From an uncultured Thermoleophilia bacterium (lineage in GTDB: Bacteria; Actinomycetota; Thermoleophilia; UBA2241), in assembly GCA_963829205.1 (NCBI GenBank), contig CAWHHT010000006.1:410471-474470 (forward strand): a DNA stretch of 64,000 nucleotides. The letters are read 5' to 3'. Positions 8,301 to 64,000 of this stretch are shown in pieces. Numbering within the stretch: the first letter of the stretch is position 1; each line of letters opens with the position of its first letter. Under the pieces are notes generated by a model. The model ran no database searches and had not been told where the DNA came from. It saw nothing but the letters and a program-made list of their open reading frames with translations. The translations under genes were made by a program, and so were the position numbers.

Positions 8301-8534
8301 TCACGGAGCCGACTGTGGACCGCCCACCTGGCGCCGTTCCTCGCCGCAGAGGCGGCGCGGCGCGGCGCCCCGCTGCGGATCGAGGGCGACGAGGTCGTCG
8401 TGCGCCTCGGCGGCGAGTGGCGCCGCTGGCGCTACGACGAGTGCTTCCTGCAGCTCGTCCCGCAGAAGGTCTCCCGCCGCCTGGTCAAGCGCGGCGTCAC
8501 GCCGCCGCAGCTGGCACAGCTGGTGCAGGAATGA
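5354..8534 (+). pseudogene. Class-II glutamine-amidotransferase-like N-terminus plus GXGXG (GltB C-terminal-type) domain protein; three frame changes
   Basis: GTG 5354. HHRYPTNS...AHPFKAYNVLLMHNGEQVG is class-II GATase-like, but there is no Cys after the initiator. GXGXG-type repeats: LVGYGFVGGPRYIG, ELYGREAGDFLG, RLYGQGQCHVGM, FNVWDSGSRFAV. The frame leaves at about 5724, returns at about 5880 and changes again at about 8310. Stop at 8532-8534. Confidence 0.6.
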
Positions 8535-8638
8535 GCTGCGGCGTTCTCGCCCGCGCTGCCCGCTGACCTGACGCGCACCGGGTACACTCTGGTCACACAA
8601 GGGCGCCACGGCGCCGACAAGACATCCAGGAGGCTCAC

Positions 8639-9700
8639 ATGGACGCGGATCGTCGCGTTGCCCTCGTGACGGGCGCCTCGTCCGGCATAGGGGCGGCGCT
8701 CGCCGACCGCCTCGCCCACGACGGCTACGATGTTGTCCTGGTCGCGCGGCGCCGCGAGCGCCTCGAGGCTCTCGCCCACAAGCTCGAGGACTCTGCGGGC
8801 GTGTCGGCCGAGGTGTTGCCGGCCGATCTCACCGACCCCGGCCAGCTGCTGGCCGTCGAGGAACGGCTCGACGCCGGCGACGGCGTCGACCTGCTCGTCA
8901 ACAACGCCGGCTTCGGCGGGTACGGACCCTTCGCCGAGCTGGAGCCGGATTTCGCCGATCGGCTGATCGGCGTCCACGTGCGCGCCCCGGTGCGGCTCAC
9001 GCGCGCGGCGCTGCCCGGCATGATCACCCGGGGCCGCGGCGCCATCGTCAATATCGCGTCCCTGCTGGCGCTCAGCGGCCCGCTACACGTACGCATGTCG
9101 GGCCGCGCGACCTACGCCGGCGCCAAGGCCTTCCTGCTCACGTTCACGCAGTCGCTGGCGCAGGAGCTCGAAGGCACCGGCGTGCGCGCCATGGTGTGCC
9201 TGCCGGGCATGGTCGAGACGGAGTTCCACGGCGTGCGCCGCGGCGACGCGCCCGCCCCGCCGTCCATGATGAGCGCGCCGGACGTGGCTCAGGCCATCGT
9301 CGCCGGGCTCGAGCTCGGCGAGATCATCTGCGTGCCCGGCCTCGAGGAGATCGGCAACTTCGAGCAGCTGCGCGGCATCCAGCAGGCGACGCTCTTCGGC
9401 GGCAACTCGGGCCAGCTGGCCTCGCGCTACCGGAGGTGCAGCCCTCGCTCAGATCCCGGTCTCGACCTTGATCTTGCCGCGCTTGATCGCCTTCATGACG
9501 AGCTCGTAGTCGCGTTCCGTCTGGTCGGCGTAGGCAAGCGCGAAGTCGGCGATCGCCTGGTCGAACCGGTCGCCGGCGCCCATGTAGGAGGCGATCGCGA
9601 CGCGCCGACCCGAGCGCGCGTGGCCGCGCGCCAGCGCCCAGCCGCAGGCCTCGGCGTAGAGCTCGAGCCCCGGCGGCTTGAGCAGGGCCACGTCCACTGA
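8639..9700 (+). CDS. Short-chain dehydrogenase/reductase; 3' end uncertain
   Basis: AGGAGG lies upstream of ATG 8639. Motifs TGASSGIGAA, NNAG and YAGAKA (Y-x3-K). The SDR-like sequence ends near 9430, but the ORF has no stop until 9700 and runs antisense into the next gene. Confidence 0.75.
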   Translation: MDADRRVALVTGASSGIGAALADRLAHDGYDVVLVARRRERLEALAHKLEDSAGVSAEVLPADLTDPGQLLAVEERLDAGDGVDLLVNNAGFGGYGPFAELEPDFADRLIGVHVRAPVRLTRAALPGMITRGRGAIVNIASLLALSGPLHVRMSGRATYAGAKAFLLTFTQSLAQELEGTGVRAMVCLPGMVETEFHGVRRGDAPAPPSMMSAPDVAQAIVAGLELGEIICVPGLEEIGNFEQLRGIQQATLFGGNSGQLASRYRRCSPRSDPGLDLDLAALDRLHDELVVAFRLVGVGKREVGDRLVEPVAGAHVGGDRDAPTRARVAARQRPAAGLGVELEPRRLEQGHVH

Positions 9701-10834
9701 AGCTTTCATGTCGCGCAGCTGGCGCCAGTAGAACTGCCGTTTCACCGGCGCGGGGCCGGTCATCCACCCGAGGAAGATGTCGCTGGCCGCCTGCATGAGC
9801 CGTTGCCCGGCGACCACGCGGTGACCGGCGTGCTGGAAGCGGCTCCTGCCGAGATACGCCTCGAGGACCGACCGGCCTGCCTCTTTGATCTGGAGGATGA
9901 GCGGGTCGTCGATGTCGCGGCCGCGAAGGAGGACGACGACGCAGAGGGTGCCGACGCTACCGACGCCGACGATCTTGCGCGCGATGTCGACGACGTCGAA
10001 ACGCTCGATCAGCTCCCGGCGGTCGTCCTCGAGCGTGGCGGCGTACTGGTGGAAGAGCGTGTGCGCGCTGTCGTCGGCGTTGTCGAGCTGCTCGAGGTGC
10101 ATCAGGACGGGCGGCTGATCGTTGAAGCGACGTTCGCCGTTCACGACCTCCGTCAGCTTGCCGGCCGCCTGCAGGCTATCGCGCGTGCGCGCCTTCGCCA
10201 GACCCTCGCCGACGCGCTTCACGATCTTGGGCGGTCGCGTCGCACGGAACATGTCGAGCAGGTCGTTGGCGACCACGTGCGAGTACCACACGTCCATCTC
10301 ACGCATCTCTGCGAAGGCCGCCATGTGCTCCCGGTAGGAGCGCACCGAGGCGAGCGTCACGTCCCGCGCGATGTCCACGGAGAAGCCGTTGCTGCGCGCC
10401 GCGAGCACGAAGCTCGCCGCGAGACGCTTGATGTCCCACGAGAACGGCCCGGGCAGGGTCTCGTCGAAGTCGTTGACGTCGAAGAGGAGCTCGCGCTCGG
10501 GCGACGCGTACATGCCGAAGTTGGAGAGGTGCGCGTCGCCGCACAGCTGGACGATCAAGCCTGTGCGCGGCAAGGGCGCGAGATCGGCGGCCATGAGCGC
10601 CGCCGAGCCGCGGTAGAACGTGAACGGCGAGGCCGACATGCGGCCCCAGCGGATCGGCACCAGGTCCTGCTGCCGGTCCGCGTCCTGCGCGCGCAGCAAA
10701 GCGATAGGGTCCGGGCGATCCGGGGCCGGCTTCCAGCCTGCGTGTGCCTTGCGGGGGACCAGCTTGCGTCGTTCTCGTCCGTCGGCGGCCCGCTCCTCGG
10801 GTGTCTCGTGAGACCAGGGCTCATTCTTGGGCAT
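9449..10834 (-). CDS. DUF2252 family protein
   Basis: Only the last 461 codons of the 1095-aa ORF look like protein (LVPIRWGRMSASPFTFYRGSAALMAADL, CGDAHLSNFG, FDVNDFDET). ATG at 10834. Confidence 0.75.
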   Translation of the reverse strand: MPKNEPWSHETPEERAADGRERRKLVPRKAHAGWKPAPDRPDPIALLRAQDADRQQDLVPIRWGRMSASPFTFYRGSAALMAADLAPLPRTGLIVQLCGDAHLSNFGMYASPERELLFDVNDFDETLPGPFSWDIKRLAASFVLAARSNGFSVDIARDVTLASVRSYREHMAAFAEMREMDVWYSHVVANDLLDMFRATRPPKIVKRVGEGLAKARTRDSLQAAGKLTEVVNGERRFNDQPPVLMHLEQLDNADDSAHTLFHQYAATLEDDRRELIERFDVVDIARKIVGVGSVGTLCVVVLLRGRDIDDPLILQIKEAGRSVLEAYLGRSRFQHAGHRVVAGQRLMQAASDIFLGWMTGPAPVKRQFYWRQLRDMKASVDVALLKPPGLELYAEACGWALARGHARSGRRVAIASYMGAGDRFDQAIADFALAYADQTERDYELVMKAIKRGKIKVETGI

Positions 10835-10977
10835 CGCGGACTCCTTCACGACATGACGGCGCCCCATGCGGTGGTGCGCCCTGCATTGAGGAGCGCATTC
10901 CCATGCAGGCGGTCGCAGAAACCGGGTGGCCGCCGGGCGTGGCCGCGCGGGGGGCGCACACACGGCCGCGACCGAGG

Positions 10978-12684
10978 CTACGCGGATGCGGGAGCGGCGC
11001 CGGCTGTCGTCGTCTCCTCCGGCGCCTTCGTCGCCTTTCCGCCGGGCAGGAAGCAGCTCATGACGAAGCCGAACAGCCCGAGCACGCCGACCGCGATGAG
11101 CGCGTCCCGCAGGCCCTTGTCGCGCGCCGCCTGATTGAACTGGATGAACTGGCGTGCGACGGCGGCAGGCGCGTTCCTGCTCTTCAGGTAGACGGCCACT
11201 TGGGCGTTGCTCACCGTCTGCGCGTCGCTGCGCAGGAAGACGATGACCTGCGGCTTCTGGCTCGCCGGGATGCCGCCGTAGTGCTCCACAGCACCCGAGA
11301 ACGAGGCGATCAGGGTGCTCATGAGCACGGCGCCGGCGACCGCGGTCCCGAAGGCGCCGCCGAGATTGCTCATGGCACGCGAGAGGCCGGAGATCTCGCT
11401 CTGCTCCTTGGCCGGCACGGCGCCCTGCGTGATGTTCATCAGCGGCGCGTTGATCAGGCCGATGCCGATGCCGGAGACGATCATGCCGGGCAGGAAGTCC
11501 CATTGCTGGGCGGTCGCCTTCAGTTCGAGCGCCACGAGCAGGATGCCGGCCACGAAGGTGAGCATGCCGACCTGCACGATGAGCTTGGGTGCGACGATCT
11601 GCGTGAGCTTGCTCACGCGGGTGGCCACGATGATGATCATGATCGTCATGGGCAGGATCAGCAGGCCGCTGTGGAAGGCGCTGTAGCCGAGGGCCATCTG
11701 CATGAACACAGGGCCGACGAACAGGAAGCCGGCCTGCATGAACATGAAGGCGACGATGGCGAGCAGGCCGAACAGCACGGCGCGGTTCTTGAGCATGCCG
11801 ATGTTGAGCAGCGCGTCCTTGCCGGCCTTGAGCATGTGGCGCTCCCATAGGGCGAACAGTCCGAGGACGACCACGCCGGCGACGACGAAGGGGATCACCG
11901 GCGAGACTCCGCCCTCGGCGATCAGCGTGCGCCCGAGGCCGACCATGGGCACGCGGGCGGCCGTCCAGCCGTACTTGCTCGCCTGGAGTACGCCGAGCAC
12001 GACGAGCGCCAGACCCAGAGCCGAGAGGAAGGCGCCGAGGTAGTCGAGCCGCGCCGGCGGGCGCTGCTGCTTGGGCACCTTGATGCGCGTCGAGAGCGCG
12101 AGCGTGGCCAGTACGACGCACACCTCCATCAGGAACGAGACGCGCCAGGTCAGATAGGTGGTGAGAAAGCCGCAGACGAGCGGCCCCAGAGCGGCGCCCA
12201 TCGCTGCCATGGCGCCGACCGCCGCAAAGGCCGAAACGCGCGGCTTGCCGGCGGGGTAGATCGTGCCGACGATCGCGAAGATCGCCGGGATCATCAGCGC
12301 CGAGCCGAGGCCCTCGAGCAGCGACCAGCCGAAGACCATCATCGGCAGACCTTGGCTGAGCGCCGTGATCAGGGCGCCGACGCCGTACATGGAGATGCCG
12401 ATGGTGAACGTCGTCCGGCGGCCCCACACGTCGCCCAGCTTGCCGCCGATGAGCATGAACGACGCCATGACGAGGGAGTAGAGCACCAGCGCGGACTGCA
12501 CGCCCGAGACCGTCGTGTCGAGGCTCTTGACCACCGACGTGACCGCGACGTTCATCGCCGTCGTATCGTAGGCGTTGATGAACTGCGCCATGCACAGGGC
12601 CACCAGGATGAGCTTCAATGGCAGCGCTGTGGCATCGGCCCCCGAGGCCATCCCGGTACGCAGGGTCTGCGCGTTGCTCGACAT
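10978..12684 (-). CDS. MFS transporter, DHA2 (EmrB/QacA-like, 14-TM type)
   Basis: 568-aa uninterrupted hydrophobic ORF with MFS-like loops (GKLGDVWGRR, PLVCGFL). Confidence 0.8.
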   Translation of the reverse strand: MSSNAQTLRTGMASGADATALPLKLILVALCMAQFINAYDTTAMNVAVTSVVKSLDTTVSGVQSALVLYSLVMASFMLIGGKLGDVWGRRTTFTIGISMYGVGALITALSQGLPMMVFGWSLLEGLGSALMIPAIFAIVGTIYPAGKPRVSAFAAVGAMAAMGAALGPLVCGFLTTYLTWRVSFLMEVCVVLATLALSTRIKVPKQQRPPARLDYLGAFLSALGLALVVLGVLQASKYGWTAARVPMVGLGRTLIAEGGVSPVIPFVVAGVVVLGLFALWERHMLKAGKDALLNIGMLKNRAVLFGLLAIVAFMFMQAGFLFVGPVFMQMALGYSAFHSGLLILPMTIMIIIVATRVSKLTQIVAPKLIVQVGMLTFVAGILLVALELKATAQQWDFLPGMIVSGIGIGLINAPLMNITQGAVPAKEQSEISGLSRAMSNLGGAFGTAVAGAVLMSTLIASFSGAVEHYGGIPASQKPQVIVFLRSDAQTVSNAQVAVYLKSRNAPAAVARQFIQFNQAARDKGLRDALIAVGVLGLFGFVMSCFLPGGKATKAPEETTTAGAAPASA

Positions 12685-18300: not shown

Positions 18301-18490
18301 TGTCGAGGCCTTCGACCTCGACCATGCACAGGCGGCAGGCGCCCCAGGCGGCTGTGCCCTCTTCGTGGCAGAGCGCGGGGATGTCGATGCCTTCGCGGCG
18401 CGCTACGTCGAGGACCGTCTCGCCCTCACGGGCGCTGAGCTTCTTGCCGTCGATGGTGAGCATCACGGCAGCTTTGGTACGCGGGCTCAC
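15308..18490 (-). CDS. Fusion protein: plant-type 2Fe-2S, GltD-like NAD(P)H flavoprotein, NuoG/HydA-type 4Fe-4S, 2x[4Fe-4S] ferredoxin and PorB (TPP-binding beta subunit of 2-oxoacid:ferredoxin oxidoreductase)
   Basis: GTG 18490 sits in a GTGA overlap with the upstream stop (alternative ATG 18463). Motifs in order: GACRLCMVEV; CPTHIDVP...GRVCPRYCEPVC; VAVVGAGPAGLAAA; GDAVSSSQSV; RCIACGRCVRVC; CISCGRCVSSCP; CIMCKECVEVCP; then CAGCG...FGGDGGTYDIG...CYDNGAYMNTG (TPP motif). Confidence 0.8.
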   Translation of the reverse strand: MSPRTKAAVMLTIDGKKLSAREGETVLDVARREGIDIPALCHEEGTAAWGACRLCMVEVEGLDKLQAACTTWVADGLEVQTDTPRVRARRESYLKMYLSDHNAYCEAPCSHACPTHIDVPAYMAALASGDAATAAAIVREELPFPGILGRVCPRYCEPVCRRGDVDDPIAICALHRAAADHSETRLIPGIPTGKRVAVVGAGPAGLAAAWFLTSRGHQVTIYDANPRAGGSLRYTIPEFRLPAKVVDKELEPLWQAGVRFVGESELGWEVDPEGLFDAGFDAVVIGVGTWEEPKHLLPGDDAALRALDVLKRVREGRAVRFNTRVVVIGDGITALDVARTARRKGAKEVVVIAPHEGEAMPAGARELAAALEEGVKFEFAALAKKVKAKGGKAQGVECVRVTREKGRLKEVRGSRFDVAGTTVVLATGYSPKLGESAEYLALGEGTRLQANYYTGRTPDDGVFAAGDAVSSSQSVIHAVASGKRTALSIDAWLRGEDLEKLEGQLAVFNGLPYLEQLADEPKLGDLGQRLAERTPVWLKMGASAELAARATMPKVGKVKRLSATDVEVEKGYSLAAARAEAMRCLQCECPSLGACELQRLGVEYDVTDNDLVVKGNRLREVEAQHEHPFIRRDMDRCIACGRCVRVCRDVAGPACYDFTGRGFAINVDTPYGEPLQLADCISCGRCVSSCPTGALTFNEREVASFRVDESRCIMCKECVEVCPVDALKETNHFEDARGKWIELAAQSSKLAGGHRMCAGCGAPIAVRQVLMGTSDPVVVSAATGCLEVSTTIYPYTSWEGSYIHTAFENAAATLSGVETAFRALKKKGLIEDNVKFIAFGGDGGTYDIGLQSLSGAMERGHQMLYVCYDNGAYMNTGFQRSGATPLGAWTTTSPVGKETAGKRQNRKNLTDIMIAHELGYVAQASPHDPRDLVRKAAKALATPGASFLNIMTPCPRGWRSDGAETIDLARAAVNACYWPLFEVVDGEYHLTYRPRHKEPLIPWLKRQGRFAHLFKPGNEETLLNLEAWVDMEWEKLLRKCGEPSEADWQDYLMSNGCLLR

Positions 18491-20404
18491 TGCTGCCTCC
18501 CTTCGGCCAGCTCGAAGATGCCGGTCTCGACGGGCACCGCATCGAACTTGCACACCTGACGGCAGGTGTCGCACTTGATGCAGAGCTTCTGGTCGATGAC
18601 GTGGAGCTTCTTGCGCTCGCCGCTGATCGCGTCGGTGGGGCAGGCGTCGAAGCACACGTGGCAGCCGGTGCAGGCGTCCTTGTCGATGGTGTAGCGGATG
18701 AGTGGGCGGCACACCTTGGCCGGGCAGCAGCGCTCGACCACGTGCGCCATGACCTCGTCGCGGAAGTACCGCAGCGTGGTGAGCACGGGATTGGGGGCGC
18801 TGCCGCCGAGCTGGCAGAGCGAGCCCTCGATGATGTCGGCGCTCAGCTGCTCGAGCAGGTCGACGTCCTCGATGGTGCCCATGCCGGCGGTGATGCGCTC
18901 GAGGATCTCGAGCATGCGCTGGGTGCCGACCCGGCATGGGCACGCACTTGCCGCAGCTCTCCTCGGCGGTGAACTGGAGGAAGAACTTGGCGAAGTCGAC
19001 CATGCACGTGGTCTCGTCGACGACGACCATGCCGCCGGAGCCCATCATCGAGCCGTACTTGGTGAGGTTCTCGAAGTCGATGGGCGTGTCGATGAGATCG
19101 GCGGGCAGGCAACCCCCGCTGGGCCCGCCGAGCTGCACGGCCTTGAACTCGCGGTCGTCCCGCACGCCGCCGCCGACGTCGAAGATGACGTCGCGCAGCG
19201 TCGCGCCCATGGGTACCTCGACGAGGCCGGAGTTCCGTACCTTGCCGGTGAGCGAGAAGATCTTGGTGCCCTTGGACGTGTCCGTGCCGATGGCCGCGAA
19301 CTCGTCGGCGCCGTGGGTGATGATCCACGGGACCGTGGCATAGGTCTCGACGTTGTTGAGGTTGGTGGGCTGGCCCCACAGGCCGTGCGCGACCGTGCGG
19401 ATGTGCTTGCCGCGCGGCATGCCACGGTGCCCCTCGATCGACGCCGTGAGCGCCGTGGACTCGCCGCAGACGAAGGCGCCGGCGCCCTGGTTGATGCGCA
19501 GGTCGAAGTCCCAGCTGGTACCGAGGATCCCGGAGCCGAGCAGCCCGCGCTCGCGCGCCTGCTCGAGCGCCAGGCGCAGGCGCGCCACGGCGAGCGGATA
19601 CTCGTGGCGCACGTACACGAAGCCCTCGTCGGCGCCGATCGCGAAGGCGGCGATGAGCATGCCCTCGATCACGGAGTGCGGGTTGTCCTCGAGCACGGCG
19701 CGGTCCATGAACGCGCCGGGGTCACCCTCGTCACCGTTGCAGATGATGTAGTGGCGCTCGCCGGGGTTCTGGCGGCAGTAGCGCCACTTGCGGCCGGCCG
19801 GGAAGCCGGCACCGCCACGGCCGCGCAGGCCGGAGCGCTCGACCTCGTCGATCACGCCCTCGGGGTCCTGCTCCTTGAGCACGCCGGCGAGGGCGGTGTA
19901 GCCGCCGCGCGCCAGGTAGTCGTCGATGCACGTGGGGTCGATGGAGCCGTTGATCTCGCGCACGATGCGCGTCTGGCCCTTGTAGAACGGGATGTCCTTC
20001 TCGAGGGCGACGGCGGCGCCGGTGGCGGGATCGGTGTAGAGCAACCGCTCCACGACGCCGTCGCCGACGACGCTCGTCTCGACGATCTCCGCCATGTCCT
20101 TGGCCTTGAGGTGCGGGTAGAAGACGCCCTGTGGGTGGACCACGGCGATCGGTCCCTCCTGGCACAGGCCGTGACAGCCCGTGAGGACGACGCGCACCTT
20201 GTCGCCGAGGCCGCGCTTGTCGAGCTCCGCCTGGAGGGCGGAGCTCACGGCCGCGCGGCCGCTCGCGTTGCAGGTGGAGCCGGCGCAGACGCGGATCCTG
20301 ACCGTGTCCTGCGCGCCGGACGTGAGCTCAGGCCGGTAGGCGGCCTTGAGGGCCTTGTCGATGCGGCTCTTCCGGGCGGTCCCGGTCTTGCCTGTGGCCG
20401 CCAC
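18487..20404 (-). CDS. NuoF/HydB-like NADH-FMN subunit with N-terminal thioredoxin-like 2Fe-2S and C-terminal 2x[4Fe-4S]; interrupted by a 1-nt insertion at 18937
   Basis: GLRGRGGAGFPAGRKW, NGDEGDPGAF, ESCGKCVP then frame break. Deleting the base at 18937 restores CVPCRVGTQRMLEIL...SLCQLGGSAPNP...CTGCHVCFDACP...CIKCDTCRQVC. Confidence 0.8.
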
Positions 20405-26640: not shown

Positions 26641-26914
26641 GCGGTCGCGCACCCGCCGTCGAAGCGCGTTCTCCGAGCGTCCCCGCCGTGCGCAAGCTCG
26701 GGTCAGGCGACCCTGCGGCACATGGAATGGCCTGCTTACCGCTGCTTCCTCCCGGACCTGACGGGGTTCGCAGGGTTCCATTGCGTAGGACCCGACCTTC
26801 AACGCCGCGACACGGCTGACAGCCTCGCGGAACGGCCCCTCGGGCGGGAATTCAGCCCCGCTGTAGCGGATTGCGGGTACAGGGCACCGCTGGCTCCCCG
26901 CCTAGCGCGACCGG
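26641..26914 (-). ncRNA. ffs: Signal recognition particle RNA, large (Bacillus-type, with Alu domain)
   Basis: The minus strand reads ...GGCGGGGAGCCAGCGGUGCCCUGUACCCGCAAUCCGCU... (Alu domain) and ...GUCAGGUCCGGGAGGAAGCAGCGGUAAG... (helix 8). 5' GGUCGCGC pairs with 3' GCGCGACC. It lies immediately upstream of dnaX, as in scr-dnaX-ybaB-recR synteny. Ends are approximate. Confidence 0.8.
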
Positions 26915-40294: not shown

Positions 40295-41172
40295 ATGTAC
40301 CCCCCGCGGCGCAGCGACTCCAGGCCGCCGCCGTCGTCCTTGTCCTGGGCGCGGCCGCTGCGCTCCGCGATGTTGCTGAACTTGCCGGTGCGCAGCTCCT
40401 CGATGATCTCCCCGACGTTGGTGGCCGTGGACTGCACCGGCGTCGTGCAGGGCTAGCAGCCGAGGGAGCGGCAGCGCGTGCCGGTGCCGTCGTCGAAGTA
40501 GAGCGACGTCACCGGGATGTCCTCGCGCTCGATGTACTCCCAGACGTTGAGCTCGGTCCAGTCGAGCAGCGGGTGGACGCGCACATGCGTGCCCGGCTCG
40601 AAATCGGTCTTGAAGTAGCGCCACAGCTCGGGCGGCTGGTCGTCGACGTTCCAGTCGTTCTCCACGTCGCGCGGCGAGAAGTAGCGCTCCTTGGAGCGCG
40701 AGCCCTCTTCGTCCGCGCGCACGCCGACGATGACGCCGGTGTACGGCGAGAGGTCCTGGTCCTCGACGAGCTCGCCCAGCGTGTGGTCCATGCGCAGCCG
40801 CGGCCACTCGCCCGAGAGCGTGTGCTTGAGGGCCATCGTCTTGAGGTTGCGGCAGCAGGTGATGCGGTCGCAGTTCCCGTCGGGGAAGGTCTGCTTGTTC
40901 TTGAGCGCCTCACGGTTCTGCCCGACGACGAGGTTGAGGTGCCACTCGAGCGCCAGGCGGTCGCGGTACTCGATCATCTCCGGCATCTTGTAGGCGGTGT
41001 CGATGTGCACGAGCGGGATCGGCACGTGGCCGAAGAAGGCCTTGCGCGCGAGGTGCAGGAGCACGGTGCTGTCCTTGCCGATCGACCAGAGCATGCAGAC
41101 GTTGCCCAGCGAGCGGTAGGCCTCGCGCAGGATGTGGACGCTCTTGGCCTCGAGGGTCTCGAGCTGGTTCAC
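40291..41172 (-). pseudogene. cysD: Sulfate adenylyltransferase subunit 2 (CysD) with an in-frame TAG at 40453-40455
   Basis: [25 protein letters not shown], ...RCRSLGC-TAG-PCTTPV...[27 protein letters not shown]. Sequence after the TAG continues in the same frame as conserved CysD C-terminus. Confidence 0.8.
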
Positions 41173-41992: not shown

Positions 41993-42322
41993 ACTACGGC
42001 AAACCGCGCCTCTGCACAAGCCCGTCCGGGACTGCGTCGATGGACGTGCGATCGCGGCCGCCGGCACACCCCCGTGACGACCGAGCGGAGGGACGATGGC
42101 CGACGAGACTGCCCGCCTGGAGCTGCCGTTCAAGCCGGGCACAACCGCCGCGCTGCCCGCGCCTCCGGGCGTCCTGCCCGCGCTGTCACTGACGATGTAA
42201 CAAGTTCAACACGGTGAAGAGCGGCACCTTGATCGAAGGCGTATGGGAGAGGCGGCGACCGCTGCGGAACACATGGTGGTTCGCGGTGGAGTACTGCTAG
42301 TCCTGACCAAGGTCTTGCGGAA

Positions 42323-43275
42323 CTAGATGAGGGCCTCGAAATACTGCGGGTAGTAGCGCCTGTATCTCTCGAAATTGTCAAGCAGATCGTCGGCGAGCTC
42401 GAACGGCGCCTCAGTCTCAGGCGGTTGCGCGGTCACGTACTGTTCGAGTCGATGCTTCTCGGGGGCGGTCAAGAATGGTACGGAGATCTCGCGTGGCTCG
42501 CTGGTGCCATTGAAGTGTGCCCACTGCATGAAGGGTCGTTGAGACAGCTCCGCCACCCTCTTTGGTTCATCCAGCAGGCCGCCAACAGAGAGCATCTGCT
42601 TTCCATCGCGATATCGATAGCTGAACAGCTGGAGGTAGGCGACGTCACCACGCTCTCTGGCCGTGTCCGAGATCACGCTGTTGAGCGCGGCCTCGTAGGC
42701 CCGCGGGAGTCCATCCGGTCATAAAGAGGCGTGAACTGTCTGGTACGGGGCGGAATGGGGTCATTGATCTCCTCCGCCCGAGCGGCGCGAATCTCGTCGC
42801 CCGTCATGTCCTCCTCGGGCGGTTCAACGCGCAGCCGAGCATCGGCCTCCACGGTGACGAGCAGGACGCTGCCCGGAGCCAGGACCGATGCCAACTGTCG
42901 AACGTCAGCCATCTGATCCTCTCCCAGTGGTTGATCGTAGTCGGGCCAAGCCAGATAGCGGGCCTCGCGATCAAGCGAAGGGAGGACTTTTGAGAGCATG
43001 TCTAGGCGAAGTTCGATGAAACCGAACGGTTTGTTGAAGATCATTCGTTTCGGAATGCTGCCTCCCTCGACGCAGATCATCTTGTCGATGAAGAGATAGC
43101 GGTGGAAGACTTGGAAATCAGCGTAGAAGGGCGCTCCGAATCCGAGGTACGTATAGTCGCTGATCGGAAGCCCTTCGTGGCTCAGCTTCTGCATCGCTTC
43201 CACCAGCAGCTTGCGTTCGACTTGCTTCGACGGGCGGAGGGCGTAGTTCAGCTTGAGGTAACTCTCGACTACCAC
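42323..43275 (-). pseudogene. Hypothetical partner protein of the GHKL ATPase (about 317 aa if one frame change near 42715 is corrected)
   Basis: Low-GC. GTG 43275 overlaps the upstream TAG by 1 nt. ORFs 42673-43353 and 42323-42676 join as ...FTPLYDR/PDGLPRAYEAALNSVISDTARERGDVAYLQLF... No family recognised. Confidence 0.5.
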
Positions 43276-44594
43276 TAGCGGCACTCCTTCTTCATGAAGT
43301 AGTCGAATGCGTATGAGCCGATCTGTCTGCCGGATCTGAACTTCGGAAAGCACTTCTTGATTCGATCGACGTCAGCCTTCTTCTTCTTGAACAGTATGTT
43401 GACCTCGGGTTCGACGTCCTTGGCCTTGAGAGTCACCAGCTGGAACTCCGAGTCGGCTGGCTTCAGATCAGCGATATTCACCCCTCGGACTTCATCCAAG
43501 GCCATTCTCTGGGCAATGCGTGTCCTCTTGGCAATCACCGTACAGGCCATTGAGGAAGTCAATGACAGGGCGTGCTCGCAGCTCCATCTCGCGTAGCGCC
43601 GCCTGATAGACACCCGATTCGAAGACGACGCCCTGCTTAGTGGTCGTCCACGGTAGGGCGTCGACATCGTCGCTTCGGAAGCAGATGTAGCCCACGAAAT
43701 GGCCGTACTTCGTGTGCCACTGCGGTATCACGCCTCCTCCCCAGCCAGTTGCGGCAGTTCGGTCGCTCTCAAGGATCATGCGCCCATTGCAGAATACGTA
43801 GGTTCCCCGAGGTGTCCTGTCATTGCGCGGCGCGACACCGGCGACCACCAGTACATCAACCCCGTCCACATCGAAGGAACGCTGTCCTGGGCGGATCTCC
43901 TCACCGCCTTGACCGACTTTGGGCAGAACTGACTTGACCGAGTGTCGATTGATCTGGATCGACAGTCCCTCATCGAGGAAGAGGGCATATGTACCGGCGA
44001 TGCGCCGTTCCAGTTCGGAAGCGAATCTATTCGAGGAGAACACTTGGGAGACGTCCGGGTGCAGATCCGTGATGGGGGTCTCCGTGCTTGCGTTCTGGAT
44101 CTCGCGGGGGGGTCTTGTCTTCGGCGCGGAAAGTTCCATTCCGGTTCTTCATCTGGGAGCCACTCCGGCACATCAATGGTCAGCTTGAAGCGAGCATCAT
44201 CAGTTTGCGATTCGAATACGATCGTGTTGCCTAGCTTGAAGAAGGCTCGCTTCATGCCGATACCGTAGACGCTCAATCCCCCCTTGGTATTCGTGTCAGA
44301 AGGGCTGCCGAGGAGGAAGGCGTGTTGTCGTGCCTCCTCAACGGCCATTCCGCCACAGTTGTCCTCGAGACGGAAGCCGCCATCAAACTCGACTGACACC
44401 CGGTAGTCGCGCAAGGCTTCGCTTGGGGCCTCGCCTGCGAGCTGGCGCATGACATTGGTTCCAGTGCGCGCGACGGCCTTGTCGATGGAGTTGTCGATCA
44501 GATCGAGGATGCTGTCGCTGATCCGAATGTCTCGCGTCAGCATGTCCACGAAAAAACGCTTGCTCGGATAGGCATGAATGGCTTCTTCGGTCAC
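43275..44594 (-). pseudogene. GHKL (HATPase_c_3, MORC/MutL-like) ATPase, about 440 aa, two frame changes (about 44113-44140 and about 43545)
   Basis: Bergerat motifs ILDLIDNSIDKAV (N box), EDNCGGM (G1) and SVYGIGMKRAF (G2). Continuation in other frames: TYALFLDEGLSIQINRH, YVFCNGRMI, ALPWTTTKQGV. Confidence 0.65.
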
Positions 44595-44769
44595 GCGCCC
44601 CCCTTGCTTCCGTCGACCCAGCGACGTGTCTGGTGGCCGGCCACTCGTGGTGCTTGACGTTTAGTATATTCTGTCCAGTCTGTGCCCACTACGGTATTCG
44701 GCGACAACCACACGGTGGTTCTGGAACCACGACATCGAATCTGTCAAGATGACCACATGAGCAACCAGG

Positions 44770-45130
44770 ATGCGCCAGGAACGGGAGGGGACCCGGATCG
44801 CTGATAGGTGGAGCGGCCGGGACCGCGTCGTCGTCTTCCAGGGCGACAACCGCCAACTGCTTCGTGACATCCCGAGAGAGACCATCCAGCTCATCGTCAC
44901 ATCGCCTCCGTACAATGTCGGCAAGGAGTACGAGACCAAATCGAGCCTTGAGCAGTACCTCGACGCCCAGACTAGAGTCATCAAGTCGTGCTGCCGTGTC
45001 CTGCAACCTGACGGCAGCTTGTGCTGGCAGGTCGGCAATCACATCGCACCAGACGGAGGAGTCGTTCCATTGGATGCCCTGCTGTACCCGATCTTCAGGC
45101 GGCATGGGCTTGTTCTGCAGGCACTACGGA
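44770..45130 (+). pseudogene. N4-C/N6-A DNA methyltransferase fragment (N-terminal half only)
   Basis: IQLIVTSPPYNVGKEY (motif IV SPPY), RVLQPDGSLCWQVG. No motif I (FxGxG) follows. The ORF runs into tRNA-Ser without further MTase-like sequence. Confidence 0.6.
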
Positions 45131-45278
45131 CATGGACCTTCACTGGATTCGATCATGAGGGCCTGGGTCATCTGGGCGATCTATGCCCTCGTGACACGGC
45201 CGTGGAAATACAGCGATCCGGAGTCATTGAGGCACTCGGCTGGGCGCTGGCGAGTGCCCCCACCAAAAGAGCTGCAAA

Positions 45279-45371
45279 TGGCGGAGAGGGGGGGGATTCG
45301 AACCCCCGAACCCGGTTAGCCGGATTAACGGTTTTCGAGACCGCCGCATTCAACCGCTCTGCCACCTCTCC
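45279..45371 (-). tRNA. tRNA-Ser (anticodon CGA)
   Basis: Reverse complement is GGAGAGGTGGCAGAGCGGTTGAATGC...CTCGAAA...long variable arm...GGGTTCGAATCCCCCCCTCTCCGCCA. Confidence 0.9.
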
Positions 45372-45460
45372 GCGAGGGGCGCCTCAGGGTGACGACTCTT
45401 GCCGCCGGGACTCGCGCCCGGCTCCTCCGCCGGGCCACCGCCGATCCCGGTAGGGGGAAG

Positions 45461-45554
45461 TGGCGGAGAGGGAGGGATTCGAACCCTCGAGGCAGGTCAT
45501 CCCCGCCCACGCGATTTCCAGTCGCGCTCCTTAAGCCAGCTCGGACACCTCTCC
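45461..45554 (-). tRNA. tRNA-Ser (anticodon GGA)
   Basis: Reverse complement is GGAGAGGTGTCCGAGCTGGCTTAAGGAGCGCGACTGGAAATCGCG...GGGTTCGAATCCCTCCCTCTCCGCCA. Confidence 0.9.
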
Positions 45555-51876: not shown

Positions 51877-53146
51877 CTAGGGTCGCGGCACGAAGTGCGG
51901 CGTGATCACTTCCGTCAGCCTCGGACGGCTGTCGATCTCCACCACCGCGACCTGGCGCCGCGCTGTGGCGCCGCCATGTGCCAGGCTCACGACTCCGGTC
52001 ACGCCGTGATACCCGCGGGTGGCGGCCAGGGCATCGCGGATGGCCGCCGGGTCGGCCGACTTGGCCGTGAGCGATGGCGTGCGCGATCAGGTTCACGGCG
52101 TCGTAGCCGAGGCCGGCGAACGAGTTCTCGGGGGCGCGGCCGTACGCGGCCTCGTAGCGACGTGCGAAGCGTCGCATGGCCGCCGTGCCGTGCGCCACGC
52201 CGAACGCGGCCTGCGTCGTGAACGAGACGCCGCCGCCGGTCTGCAGCCGCTGCCGAGAACAGCTCGGTGTTGTCGTAGCTGTCGCCGCCCATGATCCGCT
52301 GCACGTAGCCGGCGGCGCGCAGTTCGCGTACGACGATGGCTGCGTCCAGGGGGCCGACCGCCACGTAGAGCAAGTCGGGCCGGACCGGGTCGCGTGTGCC
52401 CGATCACGGGGTCGTCGGCCTCGCCGTCGCCGCCGTAGATGGGCTGCGACGCGAGTGGCGCCAGGACCTTGGCCACGTCGTCCGTGGCGGGGTGAAACCC
52501 CTTGTCGAGGACGACGTGGCCGTGCTGAGCGCGGAAGCTCTCGGAGAAGTAGTGCGTAGCCGCCGCGCGTACTCCATGTCCTCGTCGTAGATGATGGCCG
52601 CCGTGGAGGCGCCGAGCGTCTGGCGCGCGTACTCGGCGCCGGCGGCGGCCTGCACGTTGTCGCCGAACGAGGCCATGAACAGCCAGTCGGGGACCTTGGC
52701 CGGGAGCAGCGGGGACGTCGCGCCGCTCGTGAGGAACGGGATGCGCGCGTGGGCGGCGACGGGGGCGGCCGCCAGCACCTGGTCGGTGTCGCTGAGGCCG
52801 ATGATGGCGCTCGCGCCGGCCCGCACGAGGCTGCGCGCCGCGGCGCGCGCCGTCGCCGGGCTGCTCAGCCCGTCGCGCTCGAGGAGCTCGACGCGCCGTC
52901 CCAGGAGACCGCCGGCGGCGTTGATGCGGTCGACGGCCAGGCGGGCGCCGTCGAGGGAAGGGCGCGTCGAGAGCTCGACTGGGAGCCGGTGAGGTCGAAG
53001 ACGGCGCCGATGCGGATCGGCGGCGGAGACGCGCTCGCCGACGGCGTGGGGCTCGGGGCGGCGCCGCCGCAGGCGGCGGCCACGACGACGATCGAGGTCG
53101 CGACGGTCGCGGCCGCGATCGCTCGGAGAGTCGTGCTCTTGCTCAA
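51877..53146 (-). pseudogene. LivK-type ABC transporter substrate-binding lipoprotein, at least 5 frame changes
   Basis: TTG 53146 after GGAGAGGA. Lipobox VVVAAAC. Fragments in three frames: IRIGAVFDLTGSQ / ARLAVDRINAAGGLLGRRVELL...FLTSGATSP / THYFSESFRAQHGHVV / LLYVAVGPLDAAIVVRELRAAGY / RFARRYEAAYGRAPENSFAGLGYDAVNLIAHAI / KSADPAAIRDALAATRGYHGVTG. Breaks at about 52975, 52555, 52395, 52250 and 52065. Confidence 0.7.
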
Positions 53147-53319
53147 ACGGGTCCTCTCCACGACGACGGAGCCCACCCATGGTAGTGCAGAGAGGACGCG
53201 GGTTCATCCCGAGCACCCGCGCGACTCGAGGGCCGGCCCCTGAGCGTCGAGCCGGAGGCCGCGATCCCGGAGGGCAACGGCGACCCGATCGTGCTCCGCG
53301 ACTAGCATGGAGACGGATC

Positions 53320-59408: not shown

Positions 59409-60470
59409 ATGAGACTCGAAAGGCTGATCCGTTCGAAGCTCGCGCTTGCGCTCGTTGCCGTAGTGGCCTTGGCCGTACTCGCGGCGCCCGCCTTGGCGGC
59501 GCCGCACGGCGCGTTCAACCACAACGGCGACCGCCTGATCGCCGACCAGTTCAACAATCGCGTCATCGAAGTGACCAAGGCCGGCGCCATCGTCTGGCAC
59601 TTCGGCACCGGATCGTCCATAGCCGGGCCGCATACCGTGGTCGCCCCAAACGACGCCGAGCGCGTCCCCGGCGGGCTCACGCTCATCGCCGGCACCGGGG
59701 CGCCGGCCGGGACGGCCGGGTACCCGGCGGCCGGAGCACCGGACAACCGGGTCATGCTCGTCAACCAGGCGGGCAAGATCGTCTGGCAGTACGGCAAGGC
59801 CGGCGTCGCCGGCTCGGGACGCAACCGGCTGAACGCGCCGGTGCAGGCGACCTACCTCGCCAACGGCGACATCCTCATCACCGATCAGGGCAACGCGCGC
59901 GTCATCCTCGTGGACCGCGACCACAAGATCCTGTGGCAGTACGGGATGACCGGGAAGACCGGCAGCGGGCGCAACCAGCTCAACAACCCCAACAGCGCCC
60001 AGATGCTCGCCAACGGCAACGTGCTCATCGCCGACGAGGGCAACAACCGGGTACTCGTCGTGAACAAGGCGAAGCACGTGGTCTGGACCTACGGCAAGGT
60101 GAGCGGCGGCCCGCTCAACGCTCCGGCGTTCGCCAGCCGCCTGAGCAACGGCGACACGCTCATCGCCGACGGCGGCAACAACCGCGTCGTCGAGGTCAGC
60201 ATGGCGAAGCACGTTGTGTGGAGCTACAAGACGAACAAGGGCGCCGGCAGCGTCGCGAACCCGGCACCGTCGCAGGCGGTGCGCCTGCGCAACGGCGACA
60301 CGCTGATCAGCGACCAGTTCAACGATCGCGTCATCGAGGTCAACAAGGCCAAGCAGATCGTCTGGACCTACGGGCACATCGGCGTCGCCGGCAATGGCGC
60401 GGGGCAGCTGAACGCTCCGTATGGCGCCAAGGTCATCGGCGACTACACCGGGCTCACGCCGGTGAAGTGA
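59409..60470 (+). CDS. Secreted beta-propeller repeat protein (NHL-like, 6 repeats)
   Basis: Signal peptide ALALVAVVALAVLAAPALA. Repeated units ...GDxLIADxxNNRVIEVxKAxxIVWxYG. Confidence 0.7.
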   Translation: MRLERLIRSKLALALVAVVALAVLAAPALAAPHGAFNHNGDRLIADQFNNRVIEVTKAGAIVWHFGTGSSIAGPHTVVAPNDAERVPGGLTLIAGTGAPAGTAGYPAAGAPDNRVMLVNQAGKIVWQYGKAGVAGSGRNRLNAPVQATYLANGDILITDQGNARVILVDRDHKILWQYGMTGKTGSGRNQLNNPNSAQMLANGNVLIADEGNNRVLVVNKAKHVVWTYGKVSGGPLNAPAFASRLSNGDTLIADGGNNRVVEVSMAKHVVWSYKTNKGAGSVANPAPSQAVRLRNGDTLISDQFNDRVIEVNKAKQIVWTYGHIGVAGNGAGQLNAPYGAKVIGDYTGLTPVK

Positions 60471-60590: not shown

Positions 60591-61856
60591 TCAGCCGCCG
60601 CCTCCACCGTGGATGCTGCCGCTCTCGCCGCTGTGGCAGACCCGGCAGTTCTTGATGAAGGTCGCCTTGCCCTGCAGGTAGATGGGCTCCGCGTTGTCGA
60701 CCGACTTGGTCGAGGCCCACTCGGCGTGCGGGCTGTTGTGGCACGCCTCGCACATGATCTTCTTGCCGTTCATGTCCTCAGGTCCGTTGGCAAGGTACGA
60801 GTTGCGGTAGAGCTGGCCCGGGTTCTCGGCGAACTTGGCGCCGTGGCAACCGCCGCACGTGGGTTCCTGAAGCCAGGCTTGCCTTCCAGCCGCCTGCGTG
60901 TCGGCCACGGTCTGCATGCTGCCGTGGCACCTGGCGTCGGTGCAGGTGAAGCCGAGCGCCGCCATGCGTCCGCGGAGGCACTTGGTCTGCGCACCGGGAT
61001 GGCAGGCGTAGCAGGCGGGGTTGACGGTCGTCATGGTCATCTTGTCCGCGTGGAAGCCGTGTATCGCCTGCGAGAGCGGTTCGACGCCGGGCACGCCCGG
61101 CCTGCCGAGCGCGTTGTCGGCGTGGCACTCGCTGCAGGCGTGCCGGACGCCGGCTTGCAGGTCGGCGTAGAGGTGCGTGCCGTTGCCGGCATCGTGTGCT
61201 TGCAGGATGCTCGCCGCCGTGTTCTGCGGACCGTGGCAGAAGTCGCAGCGCATCTCGTCCGAGACGGGGATGACGACCTTGGGCTGCGTCGCGATCACCT
61301 TGCCGGTCTTCCTGCTGCGCACTGTGATCTTGACCGTCTGCAGAGGGTTGAACACGAGCTGGTCGCTGTACGGCGTCACCGGGATCGCGGTCGCGATCCA
61401 CCAGCGGTCCTTGCTCGACCACTTCATGGTGCCGCTGAGCTTGTTGCCGGTGATGCCGACGTTCGCCTTGAGGCCGGGGAAGCCGTAGCTGGCAGCGTAC
61501 CTCCAGAAGTCGGTCTTGCCGGCCGAGTACGTGTTGCCGATCACCGAGTACTGGATCTTGATGCCGCTGGTCACGAGGCTCGCGCCCTCGGCGCCGCGCC
61601 GGAAGACCTGGACCTTCATGTTGTTGGCCGGCGGCAGGATCATGAAGCCGGCGTAGCTTTTCTGGAAGCAGTGCATGCCCAGGTCGTTGACCGCGAAGAC
61701 CGCGTACTTGGCCTTCGAGCTCGAGATCGGCAGGTGGCGGCCAGCCGCGTCAGCGGGTGTGGCTACAAGAAGCATCAAGAGGAGAGCCATGATGCTCAGA
61801 CCGAGCGCGCCGCGTCCGTACAGCTTGTCATTCCCACGAAGTGGTCGTGCCTCCAT
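60591..61856 (-). CDS. Multiheme cytochrome c (six CxxCH plus one CxxxxCH) with an N-terminal non-heme domain
   Basis: CDFCH, CSECH, CYACH, CTDARCH, CGGCH, CEACH, CRVCH. TM or signal segment MALLLMLLVATPADA. Start ambiguous (61856 or 61787). Confidence 0.75.
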   Translation of the reverse strand: MEARPLRGNDKLYGRGALGLSIMALLLMLLVATPADAAGRHLPISSSKAKYAVFAVNDLGMHCFQKSYAGFMILPPANNMKVQVFRRGAEGASLVTSGIKIQYSVIGNTYSAGKTDFWRYAASYGFPGLKANVGITGNKLSGTMKWSSKDRWWIATAIPVTPYSDQLVFNPLQTVKITVRSRKTGKVIATQPKVVIPVSDEMRCDFCHGPQNTAASILQAHDAGNGTHLYADLQAGVRHACSECHADNALGRPGVPGVEPLSQAIHGFHADKMTMTTVNPACYACHPGAQTKCLRGRMAALGFTCTDARCHGSMQTVADTQAAGRQAWLQEPTCGGCHGAKFAENPGQLYRNSYLANGPEDMNGKKIMCEACHNSPHAEWASTKSVDNAEPIYLQGKATFIKNCRVCHSGESGSIHGGGGG

Positions 61857-62006
61857 GCCCTTCACCCCCCGATCCCGCCGCGCCACCGCGGCGTTTCGTG
61901 CCCGCTCCATCGGGCAGCCTACCCGGACCGCCGGCAAGTGATCGTGCGAAGCCGTTGGCTGGGCGACCGGCGGCGGAGCGGCGGCTTCGCGGGCCGGTCC
62001 CGAGGT

Positions 62007-62459: not shown

Positions 62460-63104
62460 TCAGCGGCGCCTGGCTATCTCCTCGGCGATCATGGCGACGA
62501 CCGCCGGCAGGGCGTCGGCGACCGCCGGCGACAACGTGTCGGCGTTGGGGCGCACGTCGCCGACCTGGACCGCGAAGATGACGACCTCGGGGTCGGCGCC
62601 GGTGAGGCGCGTGTTGGCGACGAGATGCGGGACGCCCATGCCATGGATGTTGTTGGAGCGCAGCGAGACGACGCCGGCCTCGTCGGGCCCGAAGCGGAAG
62701 ACCTGGCCGGGCTCGGCGCCCTGGCCGGAGGCGTCCAGGGCGTCGACGACGATCACCGTGTCGGCCTCGCGGAAGTGCTTGATGAGGCCGAGGCCGGCCG
62801 TCTCGCCCAGCACGGCGTCGAGACCGGGTCCGAAGGCGTCGGGGATGTGCCGCCCGACGCCGGCCGCGACCGGCCCGCCGTGCAGCGGCGTCACGTCGTG
62901 GCCGGACTGGGCCAGCAGCCGCCTGACGACGGCAACGCCGACGCCGTCGTCGCCCATGAGCGTGTTGCCGACGCCGAGGACGGCGAGACGCCGGCGGGCG
63001 GCAGGCCCTCCGGCGTCTCGCGCGCTGTCGGCGTTCGCCCCGGCCAGCTCAGCCGCCTTCGCCGGGCGCCGTATCTGCCGCCTTGGACGGGGAGCTCGCT
63101 CCAT
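62460..63104 (-). CDS. [NiFe]-hydrogenase maturation endopeptidase (HyaD/HybD family); start uncertain
   Basis: LAVLGVGNTLMGDDGVG...VIVVDALD...HGMG. The longest ORF overlaps the cytochrome b gene by 56 nt. Confidence 0.75.
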   Translation of the reverse strand: MERAPRPRRQIRRPAKAAELAGANADSARDAGGPAARRRLAVLGVGNTLMGDDGVGVAVVRRLLAQSGHDVTPLHGGPVAAGVGRHIPDAFGPGLDAVLGETAGLGLIKHFREADTVIVVDALDASGQGAEPGQVFRFGPDEAGVVSLRSNNIHGMGVPHLVANTRLTGADPEVVIFAVQVGDVRPNADTLSPAVADALPAVVAMIAEEIARRR

Positions 63105-63765
63105 TGCGCGGTCGCTGGCGCACGTCCACGCATTCGGCGCGCACGGGACGGCCCTCCCTCCAGAGGAACATCAGCGGGATCTCCCACGGCGCCTCGATGA
63201 GCACGATGTACACGTGCGCCGCTGTGATCACGATGAACAGCCACATGGCGATGTAGTGGATGTTGCGGATCATCTCGGTGCCGCCGAGGAAGTAGGTCAT
63301 GGGCTGGAAGAAGCTCGCCGTCACGTGCCACATGGCGAGGCCGGTGGTCGCGTCGACGATGATCGCGAAGAGCAGGCAGCCGTAGGCAAGCTTCTGCAGC
63401 GGGTTGTACTTGGCCGTGCAGGGATGCGTCTTGCGCAGGAACAGGTAGTACTTGACGATCTCCCAGAAGGTCCCCTTGTTCTCCTTCTGCGGGAAGAAGA
63501 AGTGCCAGTCCTTGATCCGCTTCGTGCTGCCGACGTCCGCCGACCCGGTCCCGAAGAACCCCCAGTACACGCGGAAGATCCCGGTGCCCACCAGGAAGAA
63601 CGCGGCGAACAGGTGCACGTAGCGCACCGTGCCGAAGGACCAGCCTGTGAACGGATTGTGGATCCAGAAGCCCGTGAAGATGAGCGTGAACAGGGCGACG
63701 ATGTGGATCCAATGGGTGATCACGGTGCTGATCGGGTGTTCGGCTCTCGTGGTGTGCTTGGCCAT
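63049..63765 (-). CDS. Ni/Fe-hydrogenase b-type cytochrome subunit (HyaC/HupC-like)
   Basis: 4-TM protein. THWIHIVALFTLIFTG, RYVHLFAAFF, NPLQKLAY, IHYIAMWLF (His ligand pattern). Confidence 0.8.
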   Translation of the reverse strand: MAKHTTRAEHPISTVITHWIHIVALFTLIFTGFWIHNPFTGWSFGTVRYVHLFAAFFLVGTGIFRVYWGFFGTGSADVGSTKRIKDWHFFFPQKENKGTFWEIVKYYLFLRKTHPCTAKYNPLQKLAYGCLLFAIIVDATTGLAMWHVTASFFQPMTYFLGGTEMIRNIHYIAMWLFIVITAAHVYIVLIEAPWEIPLMFLWREGRPVRAECVDVRQRPRNGASSPSKAADTAPGEGG

Positions 63766-63780
63766 GGTCCGTCACCCGCC

Positions 63781-64000
63781 TCAACGAACGCGGAACTTGA
63801 GGATCTGGTTGCTCGTCGGTTCAATCACGTGAACCGCACAAGCCATTCAGGGGTCGAAGGTGTGGACAAGCCGCAGGATCTCCAGCGGCTGCGCCGGGTC
63901 CGCGACCGGCAGGCCGACCAGAGCCTCCTCCACCGGACCTCTCACCCCCTTGTCGTCGCGGGGAGAAGTTCCAGTTGGACGGTGGAACGGCGGCGAACGA
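63781..64000 (-). CDS. [NiFe(Se)]-hydrogenase large subunit, C-terminal 72 codons (5' part outside window), with in-frame TGA at 63847-63849 in place of the first Cys of DPCxxCxxH
   Basis: The minus strand reads SFAAVPPSNWNFSPRDDKGVRGPVEEALVGLPVADPAQPLEILRLVHTFDP-TGA-MACAVH-VIEPTSNQILKFRVR-TGA. Not in the ORF track because the TGA splits it. Confidence 0.8.
63817..63836 (-). promoter_or_regulatory. Candidate SECIS hairpin
   Basis: mRNA reads UGA AUGGCUUGUG CGGUUCA CGUGAU UGAACCG. The 7-bp stem starts 10 nt after the UGA, can be extended by G:C across a bulged A, and has GU in the loop. Confidence 0.5.

Follow-up and report, generated by a model that had tools for sequence, protein, structure and literature searches.

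Does an in-frame TGA near the end of a hydrogenase gene terminate translation, mark a lesion, or encode selenocysteine (Sec)? The question is raised by the right edge of a 64,000-nt stretch of DNA from an uncultured Thermoleophilia bacterium (contig CAWHHT010000006.1; hereafter the window, meaning the whole stretch that was analysed), where the 3' end of a [NiFe]-hydrogenase large-subunit gene (63850-64000, minus strand; ~50 codons, cut by the window edge) runs to ...LEILRLVHTFDP and meets a TGA (63847-63849, minus strand) at the first Cys of the C-terminal nickel-ligand motif DPCxxCxxH. An earlier reading, made from the letters alone (hereafter the sequence-only reading), had taken this triplet for a Sec codon and not for a stop. 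The comparisons reported here uphold it through the conservation of the TGA, a frozen hairpin downstream, the codon choice within that hairpin, and its agreement with the published features of the bacterial selenocysteine insertion sequence (SECIS). Judging from sequence comparison, we propose that the UGA at 63849-63847 is very probably decoded as Sec by way of a SECIS hairpin, which would make the product a [NiFeSe] hydrogenase.

The in-frame TGA and the peptide encoded after it

The minus strand at the right edge of the window encodes ...GPVEEALVGLPVADPAQPLEILRLVHTFDP, followed by TGA (63849-63847), MACAVH, VIEPTSNQILKFRVR and a second TGA (63783-63781), in agreement with the sequence-only reading. 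The 21 in-frame codons between the two triplets (63784-63846, minus strand) thus comprise MACAVH, which contains the second Cys ligand and the His of the cleavage site, and the 15-residue tail VIEPTSNQILKFRVR; this peptide is conserved in relatives, which also have a stop at the place equivalent to 63781-63783 (minus strand), the true stop of the gene. Alignment with solved [NiFe] large subunits (1FRF) places the first TGA on the first Cys of DPCxxCxxH, just where the sequence-only reading had put it.

The comparison at the DNA level covered 17 distinct orthologous sequences (the window and 16 others, from Thermoleophilia, Aquicultor/Actinomycetota and Coriobacteriia assemblies), and for the protein comparison we took the 120 best-matching homolog clusters (59-93% identity). 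Here L-numbers denote fetched related loci and P-numbers homolog proteins; 11 proteins from the homolog searches were looked up by exact-protein match. Coriobacteriia assemblies were present in the same homolog set at ~60% identity, and a query of 71 C-terminal residues returned just 9 short fragments, two of which served as Cys-type controls.

The UGA is recoded. All 17 orthologous sequences have TGA at this codon, and in every one of them the frame continues after it through xxCxxH and 15-25 tail residues before it reaches a genuine stop. Among the 120 homolog clusters, 117 terminate exactly at ...FDP, one at FDA before TGA, and two are frameshifted; a Cys codon (TGC or TGT) at the TGA position occurs in none of the 120, so that the point on which the sequence-only reading had made itself vulnerable, the codon used by relatives, turned out in its favour for the TGA and hairpin alike. 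By tblastn, a 39-residue stretch of the window is 97% identical to large-subunit residues 486-524 of L001, L003 and L004. As TGA is also the main ordinary stop codon of the window (16 of 23 genes), the genetic code is not reassigned, and since purifying selection acts on the downstream peptide, the triplet must be translated; a true stop here would cost the enzyme two of its four Ni-Fe ligands together with the protease cleavage site. The TGA is, then, ancestral and conserved, a codon and not a lesion.

The proline that precedes it, normally invariant before the Sec/Cys ligand, is replaced by Ala in L024-L026, where FDA-TGA stands for FDP-TGA (e.g., L024, 8142-8147).

The same alignments bear on the notion that the TGA is a true stop, the last 21 codons forming a separate small peptide gene or the enzyme working in truncated form. 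A separately encoded peptide has a precedent in VhuU of Methanococcus voltae, gene callers do end the protein at the TGA, and the codon after it is ATG in 14 of 16 aligned sequences. Yet that codon is ATC, ATT or CTC in L008, L024 and L030, none of them a start, and on this ground a split gene with re-initiation fails. That position of DPCxxC is, moreover, commonly taken by Met, Ile or Leu, and termination would leave the enzyme without its first C-terminal nickel ligand. We therefore give termination at this codon hardly any credence.

The hairpin downstream of the TGA

Ten nucleotides past the first UGA begins a hairpin (63817-63836, minus strand) with a 7-bp stem, formed by the arms CGGUUCA (63836-63830) and UGAACCG (63823-63817) around the loop CGUGAU (63829-63824); its position and pairing are those given by the sequence-only reading. 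An 18-nt core, GGTTCACGTGATTGAACC, lies at 63835-63818. RNAfold extends the structure (63811-63843, minus strand) by a lower stem, GCUUGU (63843-63838) with ACGAGC (63816-63811), which leaves G 63837 bulged. This extension is lineage-specific, being different in L020 and absent in L013 and L016; such variability fits the case of Escherichia coli fdhF, in which the upper stem-loop alone is needed.

The published model of the bacterial SECIS (bSECIS) specifies an apical loop of 3-9 nt on an upper stem of 4-16 bp, a G at loop position 1 or 2 (with G or U as the usual next base), a UGA-to-loop distance of 16-37 nt and a free energy of <= -7.5 kcal/mol (PMC13188914). Here the loop has 6 nt and the stem 7 bp (6 bp in L012 and L022), loop positions 2 and 3 are G and U in 16 of the 17 sequences (position 2 is U in L006), the loop lies 17 nt from the UGA throughout, and the isolated hairpin has a folding energy of -8.1 kcal/mol. 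It thereby falls within all four bSECISearch limits, an examination for a bacterial SECIS that the sequence-only reading had suggested. With E. coli fdhF and the bSECISearch consensus it shares a coding-region stem-loop directly 3' of the UGA, a small loop, G-U at loop positions 2-3 and the distance of 17 nt; the 10-11 nt that separate the UGA from the upper stem here likewise resemble the arrangement in the minimal fdhF element. The hairpin is unrelated in sequence to fdhF, and its 18-nt core varies unusually little among three actinobacterial classes.

The signal of the hairpin lies in this conservation and in its choice of codons. Fifteen of the 17 distinct sequences share the core GGTTCACGTGATTGAACC without change; of the other two, one has an A to G change that keeps a U-G pair and one a change in the loop. 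At third codon positions the entropy drops to 0 in codons +4 to +8 and to 0.34 in codon +9, against 0.7-2.0 bits in most flanking codons. One basal pair is changed from C-G to G-C in L008 and L030; the consensus fold of the alignment reproduces just this hairpin, and 98.2% of the cells pair. The codons that build it are abnormal for the window (69.9% guanine plus cytosine, GC): GTT accounts for 1.3% of its Val codons, ATT for 0.6% of Ile and GAA for 9.6% of Glu, and all three are used in the hairpin (joint frequency ~7.5e-6). Within the 523 kb of fetched DNA the core occurs at the hydrogenase site only; a search with the 18-mer (<=3 mismatches) and with a hairpin-plus-TGA pattern returned that site together with a few hairpins of unrelated sequence. 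Taken as a whole, these patterns show an RNA element under nucleotide-level selection, placed at SECIS spacing.

A second Sec-type subfamily, L008 (9927-9944) and L030 (4834-4851), has the same core in front of a different tail (..KTGK..SP.GR), and its siblings are mostly Cys-type. The pattern suggests that Cys was converted to Sec more than once (independently) or that the gene's 3' end was transferred, with a single SelB specificity as the constraint.

Counter-evidence: fold statistics, decoding machinery and a frameshift

Several results weigh against a Sec codon at this site, and they are set out here with the explanations that they would favour. Three of them concern the fold. Its stability is unremarkable against dinucleotide shuffles (z = -1.41; 20 of 200 shuffles were equal or better). 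Rfam returned nothing at gathering thresholds in the whole window and nothing relevant at E <=10 in 63700-64000. Covariation is minimal, with one compensatory pair and one wobble, and 76 of 500 shuffles match the observed values; the signal is missing because the stem is too invariant to covary, and hence the support for the hairpin comes from its invariance and not from covariation.

A fourth point is that the amino acids V, H, E and P force three of the seven stem pairs, so that the hairpin might be a by-product of the conserved peptide AVHVIEP, with no function as RNA. A similar tail, HVIEPETNEILKF, is indeed present in the Cys-type enzyme of Desulfovibrio fructosovorans, and the Cys-type gene L028 forms a weaker hairpin (6-bp stem, 8-nt loop). 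Against this stand the synonymous sites that take part in pairing, which are invariant among the Sec-type genes, and the rarity of the three codons that the stem requires. Two further Cys-type genes, L027 (..CIACGVHVIEPE..) and L029 (..CVACAVHVFEPK..), encode the same or nearly the same peptide in common codons (GTG, GTC, ATC or TTC, and GAG), and the hairpin is absent from both. The tails of Cys-type genes are also variable (VIHP, VIDP, IVEP, ITEP, VFEP), in contrast to those of Sec-type genes, which always read VIEP; this suggests that the RNA constrains the peptide, and not the reverse. We regard a mere by-product of the peptide as highly improbable.

The decoding machinery provides further counter-evidence. 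No selA, selB or selD gene was present among the ~35 open reading frames (ORFs) of the window scanned with NCBIfam and Pfam models or in ~520 kb of related loci, and ARAGORN found no tRNA-Sec gene (selC) in the window, which has five ordinary tRNAs, or in 18 loci. A scan for other selenoprotein genes, based on in-frame stops with high-GC3 flanks (GC3 being GC at third codon positions), was too noisy to inform. These negatives would suit a selenium-free read-through, in which a near-cognate tRNA inserts Cys or Trp and the hairpin merely stimulates the event; conservation, for its part, proves recoding and not which residue enters. Several lines of evidence oppose this. The position is the exact site at which Sec replaces Cys in known [NiFeSe] enzymes (PMC13582414), and the size, the spacing and the loop G-U of the hairpin fit a bSECIS of the SelB type. 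Change of TGA to TGC or TGT would be the simpler way to obtain Cys, yet not one of the 120 clusters has taken it. Lastly, Actinobacteria are among the phyla with the Sec-decoding trait (PMC5322559). Read-through without selenium is accordingly a slim prospect, and insertion of Sec stays the preferred reading.

The remaining counter-evidence lies in the gene as assembled, which is frameshifted ~36 codons upstream of the TGA. Relative to its four closest relatives the window lacks two nucleotides at ~63957-63962 (minus strand; the exact position within the run, CCCCGCG or CCGCGCG, is ambiguous), as seen in alignments to L001, L002 and L004: relatives read TTCTCGCCGCGCGACGAC or TTCTCGCCCCGGGACGAC at the site and the window reads TTCTCCCCGCGACGAC, which becomes CCGCGCGAC when the two missing bases are restored. 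On this point the sequence-only reading has to be corrected, as the peptide that it quoted as continuous, NWNFSPRDDKG, joins two frames, SFAAVPPSNWNFSP (frame from 64000) and RDDKGVRGPVEE... (frame from 63999).

Could the large-subunit gene then be a pseudogene, the deletion being real and the TGA and hairpin relics of a recently inactivated [NiFeSe] gene? Apart from the frameshift relative to L001-L004, other disrupted genes of the window speak for it, namely the TAG in cysD, a binding-protein gene with a +1 insertion and fragmentary genes in a low-GC island. Past the frameshift, though, the protein is 97% identical to relatives and the hairpin is untouched, and the cytochrome b and protease genes that follow are intact. 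The same gene is, besides, frameshifted or interrupted in long-read ENA/MFD assemblies (P0062, P0106, P0129, P0177 and L008, the last at 9241-9912), and this recurrence points to assembly errors in a GC-rich stretch. Considering the recurrence and the perfect downstream conservation, we hold an assembly error to be clearly more likely than a pseudogene as the source of the 2-nt deletion, albeit unproven; a pseudogene is an unlikely, though not a negligible, explanation. The worry that the TGA itself is one more lesion of the window is answered by its conservation, which sets it apart from the cysD TAG and from the frameshifts.

The sequence-only reading had rightly cautioned that the window contains lesions elsewhere, including a nonsense codon in cysD. 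The TAG (40455-40453) lies in frame within the motif RSLGC-x-PCT of that gene (~40380-41170, minus strand), after which the frame continues normally, and no sign of its conservation was found. A Peripla_BP_6 binding-protein gene (51880-53300, minus strand) is split over two frames by a +1 insertion relative to L001 near 52070.

The hydrogenase operon, its relatives and other features of the window

Downstream of the large-subunit gene lies a gene for a probable Ni/Fe-hydrogenase b-type cytochrome subunit of 238 aa, a membrane anchor (63049-63765, minus strand), whose orthologs with PF01292 (Ni_hydr_CYTB) occupy the same position; the window protein scores 117.3 bits with TIGR02125, slightly below the cutoff of 121.5. 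It is followed by an ORF (62460-63104, minus strand) for a hydrogenase maturation endopeptidase of the HyaD/HybD/HycI family, which scores 101.5 bits with TIGR00072 (cutoff 47.45); relatives have PF01750 (HycI) proteins here, and the true start is probably near 62999, judged against L001. A maturation protease gene downstream had been proposed in the sequence-only reading, and it is there, with the cytochrome b gene between it and the large-subunit gene.

The window cytochrome b is 91% identical to that of L001 (an uncultured Thermoleophilia assembly), 75-82% to those of three further Thermoleophilia assemblies, ~50% to those of Aquicultor/Actinomycetota assemblies and 44% to that of one Coriobacteriia assembly; an exact-protein look-up gave no identical entry on record. 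In L001 the operon is seen in full: the small subunit (7112-8347) has the signal RREFLK for twin-arginine translocation (Tat), the large subunit (8344-9918) is followed by TGA and 21 further codons, and cytochrome b and protease come after, the latter at 10776-11315. The order small subunit, large subunit, cytochrome b and protease recurs in the further loci that are long enough to contain all four. The L001 large subunit is a full PF00374 protein (best solved match 1FRF, E 1.7e-127), and PF00374 is carried by the large subunits of the relatives; the N-terminal nickel-ligand motif RxCGxCxxxH, which reads RICGVCPTPH in L001, is invariant in the large-subunit alignment and is encoded past the end of the window. 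At its right edge the window thus has the 3' end of a conserved operon for a Tat-exported small subunit, a large subunit, cytochrome b and a maturation protease, that is, of a membrane-bound group 1 uptake hydrogenase of a Thermoleophilia-like actinobacterium.

How the parts would act together can be sketched as follows. Read as Sec, UGA 63849-63847 would yield the nickel-ligand motif DP-U-MA-C-AV-H; the hairpin, as a bacterial SECIS, would bind SelB with Sec-tRNA(Sec) and so bring about insertion of Sec at the UGA in the A site, and translation would continue for 21 codons to the stop at 63783-63781. After insertion of the Ni-Fe centre, the downstream protease would cut after the His and remove VIEPTSNQILKFRVR, the mature enzyme would be exported through Tat with the small subunit, and cytochrome b would pass the electrons of H2 to the quinone pool. 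The insertion of Sec, the binding of SelB, the cleavage and the physiological direction are steps that we infer.

In the small subunits of L001, L002 and L004, Cys replaces Pro238 of D. fructosovorans, a change that converts the medial [3Fe-4S] cluster to [4Fe-4S], as in [NiFeSe] enzymes; a [4Fe-4S] medial cluster is predicted in these three on this account. L013, L016 and L022 keep Pro, and hence the Cys is not a property of the whole clade.

A multihaem c-type cytochrome with ~7 CxxCH or CxxxxCH motifs and an NHL-repeat protein are encoded just downstream of the operon (60591-61937, minus strand, and 59409-60470, plus strand), and a multihaem cytochrome is found at the same place in L002. 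It may be an electron-transfer partner of the hydrogenase.

Among known enzymes, HysAB of Desulfovibrio vulgaris Hildenborough and Desulfomicrobium baculatum (HydDB group 1a; PDB 2WPN, 1CC1) has a UGA-encoded Sec at the first Cys of DPCxxCxxH with a hairpin just 3' of it; its small subunit is exported by Tat, and a dedicated protease cuts off a C-terminal tail. All of these features have counterparts, seen or proposed, in the present clade; the small-subunit Cys that predicts an all-[4Fe-4S] chain is shared by the closest relatives of the window. The similarity is nonetheless distant (E 1e-80 to 1e-86 for HysA-type chains vs 1e-127 for the Cys-type 1FRF), and unlike HysAB the present clade has a cytochrome b partner and an actinobacterial host, not a sulfate reducer. 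With the TGA read as Cys, three clade members scored 362-366 bits with NF045518 (HysA; cutoff 780) and 481-497 bits with NF033181 (NiFeSe_hydrog; cutoff 600), scores that place the clade outside the HysA family; none of the curated models tested recognises its members as selenoproteins.

The best solved matches of both subunits are HynAB of D. fructosovorans, D. gigas and D. vulgaris Miyazaki (group 1b; 1FRF, 2FRV, 1H2A), which have a nearly identical C-terminal tail (HVIEPETNEILKFKV); MACAVH and the tail of the window resemble the D. fructosovorans tail CIACGVHVIEPETNEILKFKV. HynAB differs in having Cys in place of Sec (the related Cys-type gene L027 being devoid of the hairpin), and in having Pro238, with a [3Fe-4S] medial cluster, at the site of the Cys of L001, L002 and L004. 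The actinobacterial host and the gene set of large and small subunit, cytochrome b and protease are shared with HydDB group 1i, the 'Coriobacteria-type' (PMC5037454, PMC9686372); this likeness rests on gene set and host, and the closest solved structures are those of group 1b. In the HydDB table [NiFeSe] variants appear only in groups 1a, 3a and 3c, not in 1i, and group 1i is reported only from Coriobacteriales (PMC5037454, PMC9686372).

[NiFeSe] hydrogenases have been described as limited to a few sulfate-reducing deltaproteobacteria and methanogens (PMC4730141, PMC13188914), and we found no report of a selenium-containing hydrogenase in Actinomycetota, including Coriobacteriia and Thermoleophilia, in the open full-text literature (subscription journals lay outside the search). 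Thus, the mechanism is known, and the novelty, to the extent checked, lies in the lineage and in a sharply conserved SECIS. On balance we favour a wider view, in which a whole clade of cytochrome-b-linked respiratory uptake hydrogenases, from Thermoleophilia, Aquicultor-like lineages and Coriobacteriia of soils, sediments and the subsurface, consists of selenium enzymes with a near-invariant 18-nt SECIS of their own. Such a clade would have been overlooked, as gene callers take the UGA for a stop; more than 100 database clusters of the large subunit miss the last 22 residues, including two metal ligands, and the invariant 18-nt core offers a simple marker by which to correct the truncated entries.

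If this holds, [NiFeSe] hydrogenases extend beyond sulfate reducers and methanogens, and actinobacterial H2 oxidation depends on the supply of selenium, so that the availability of this element would bear on the hydrogen cycle of soils and sediments. [NiFeSe] hydrogenases are valued for their high H2-production activity and fast recovery from oxygen, and new catalysts, including a cytochrome b-linked version, would be on offer.

Elsewhere in the window, a low-GC island (42200-45200; 53-61% vs 70%) shows no period-3 coding signal and adjoins two tRNA-Ser genes (45279-45554). With an incomplete (half) O-methyltransferase, the N-terminus of a DNA methylase and a HATPase_c_3 ATPase in it, this is apparently the decayed remnant of a restriction-modification or defence island. 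Between 15308 and 20458 (minus strand), a frame of 1716 codons runs without a stop and has NuoF-like, 2Fe-2S, GltD-like and PorB-like matches in series; we considered it as one fusion gene and rejected this, as the phase of codon-position GC shifts at 18390-18990, and it probably comprises several genes. Directly upstream of dnaX lies a signal recognition particle RNA of the large, Bacillus type (207 bits; 26645-26910, minus strand).

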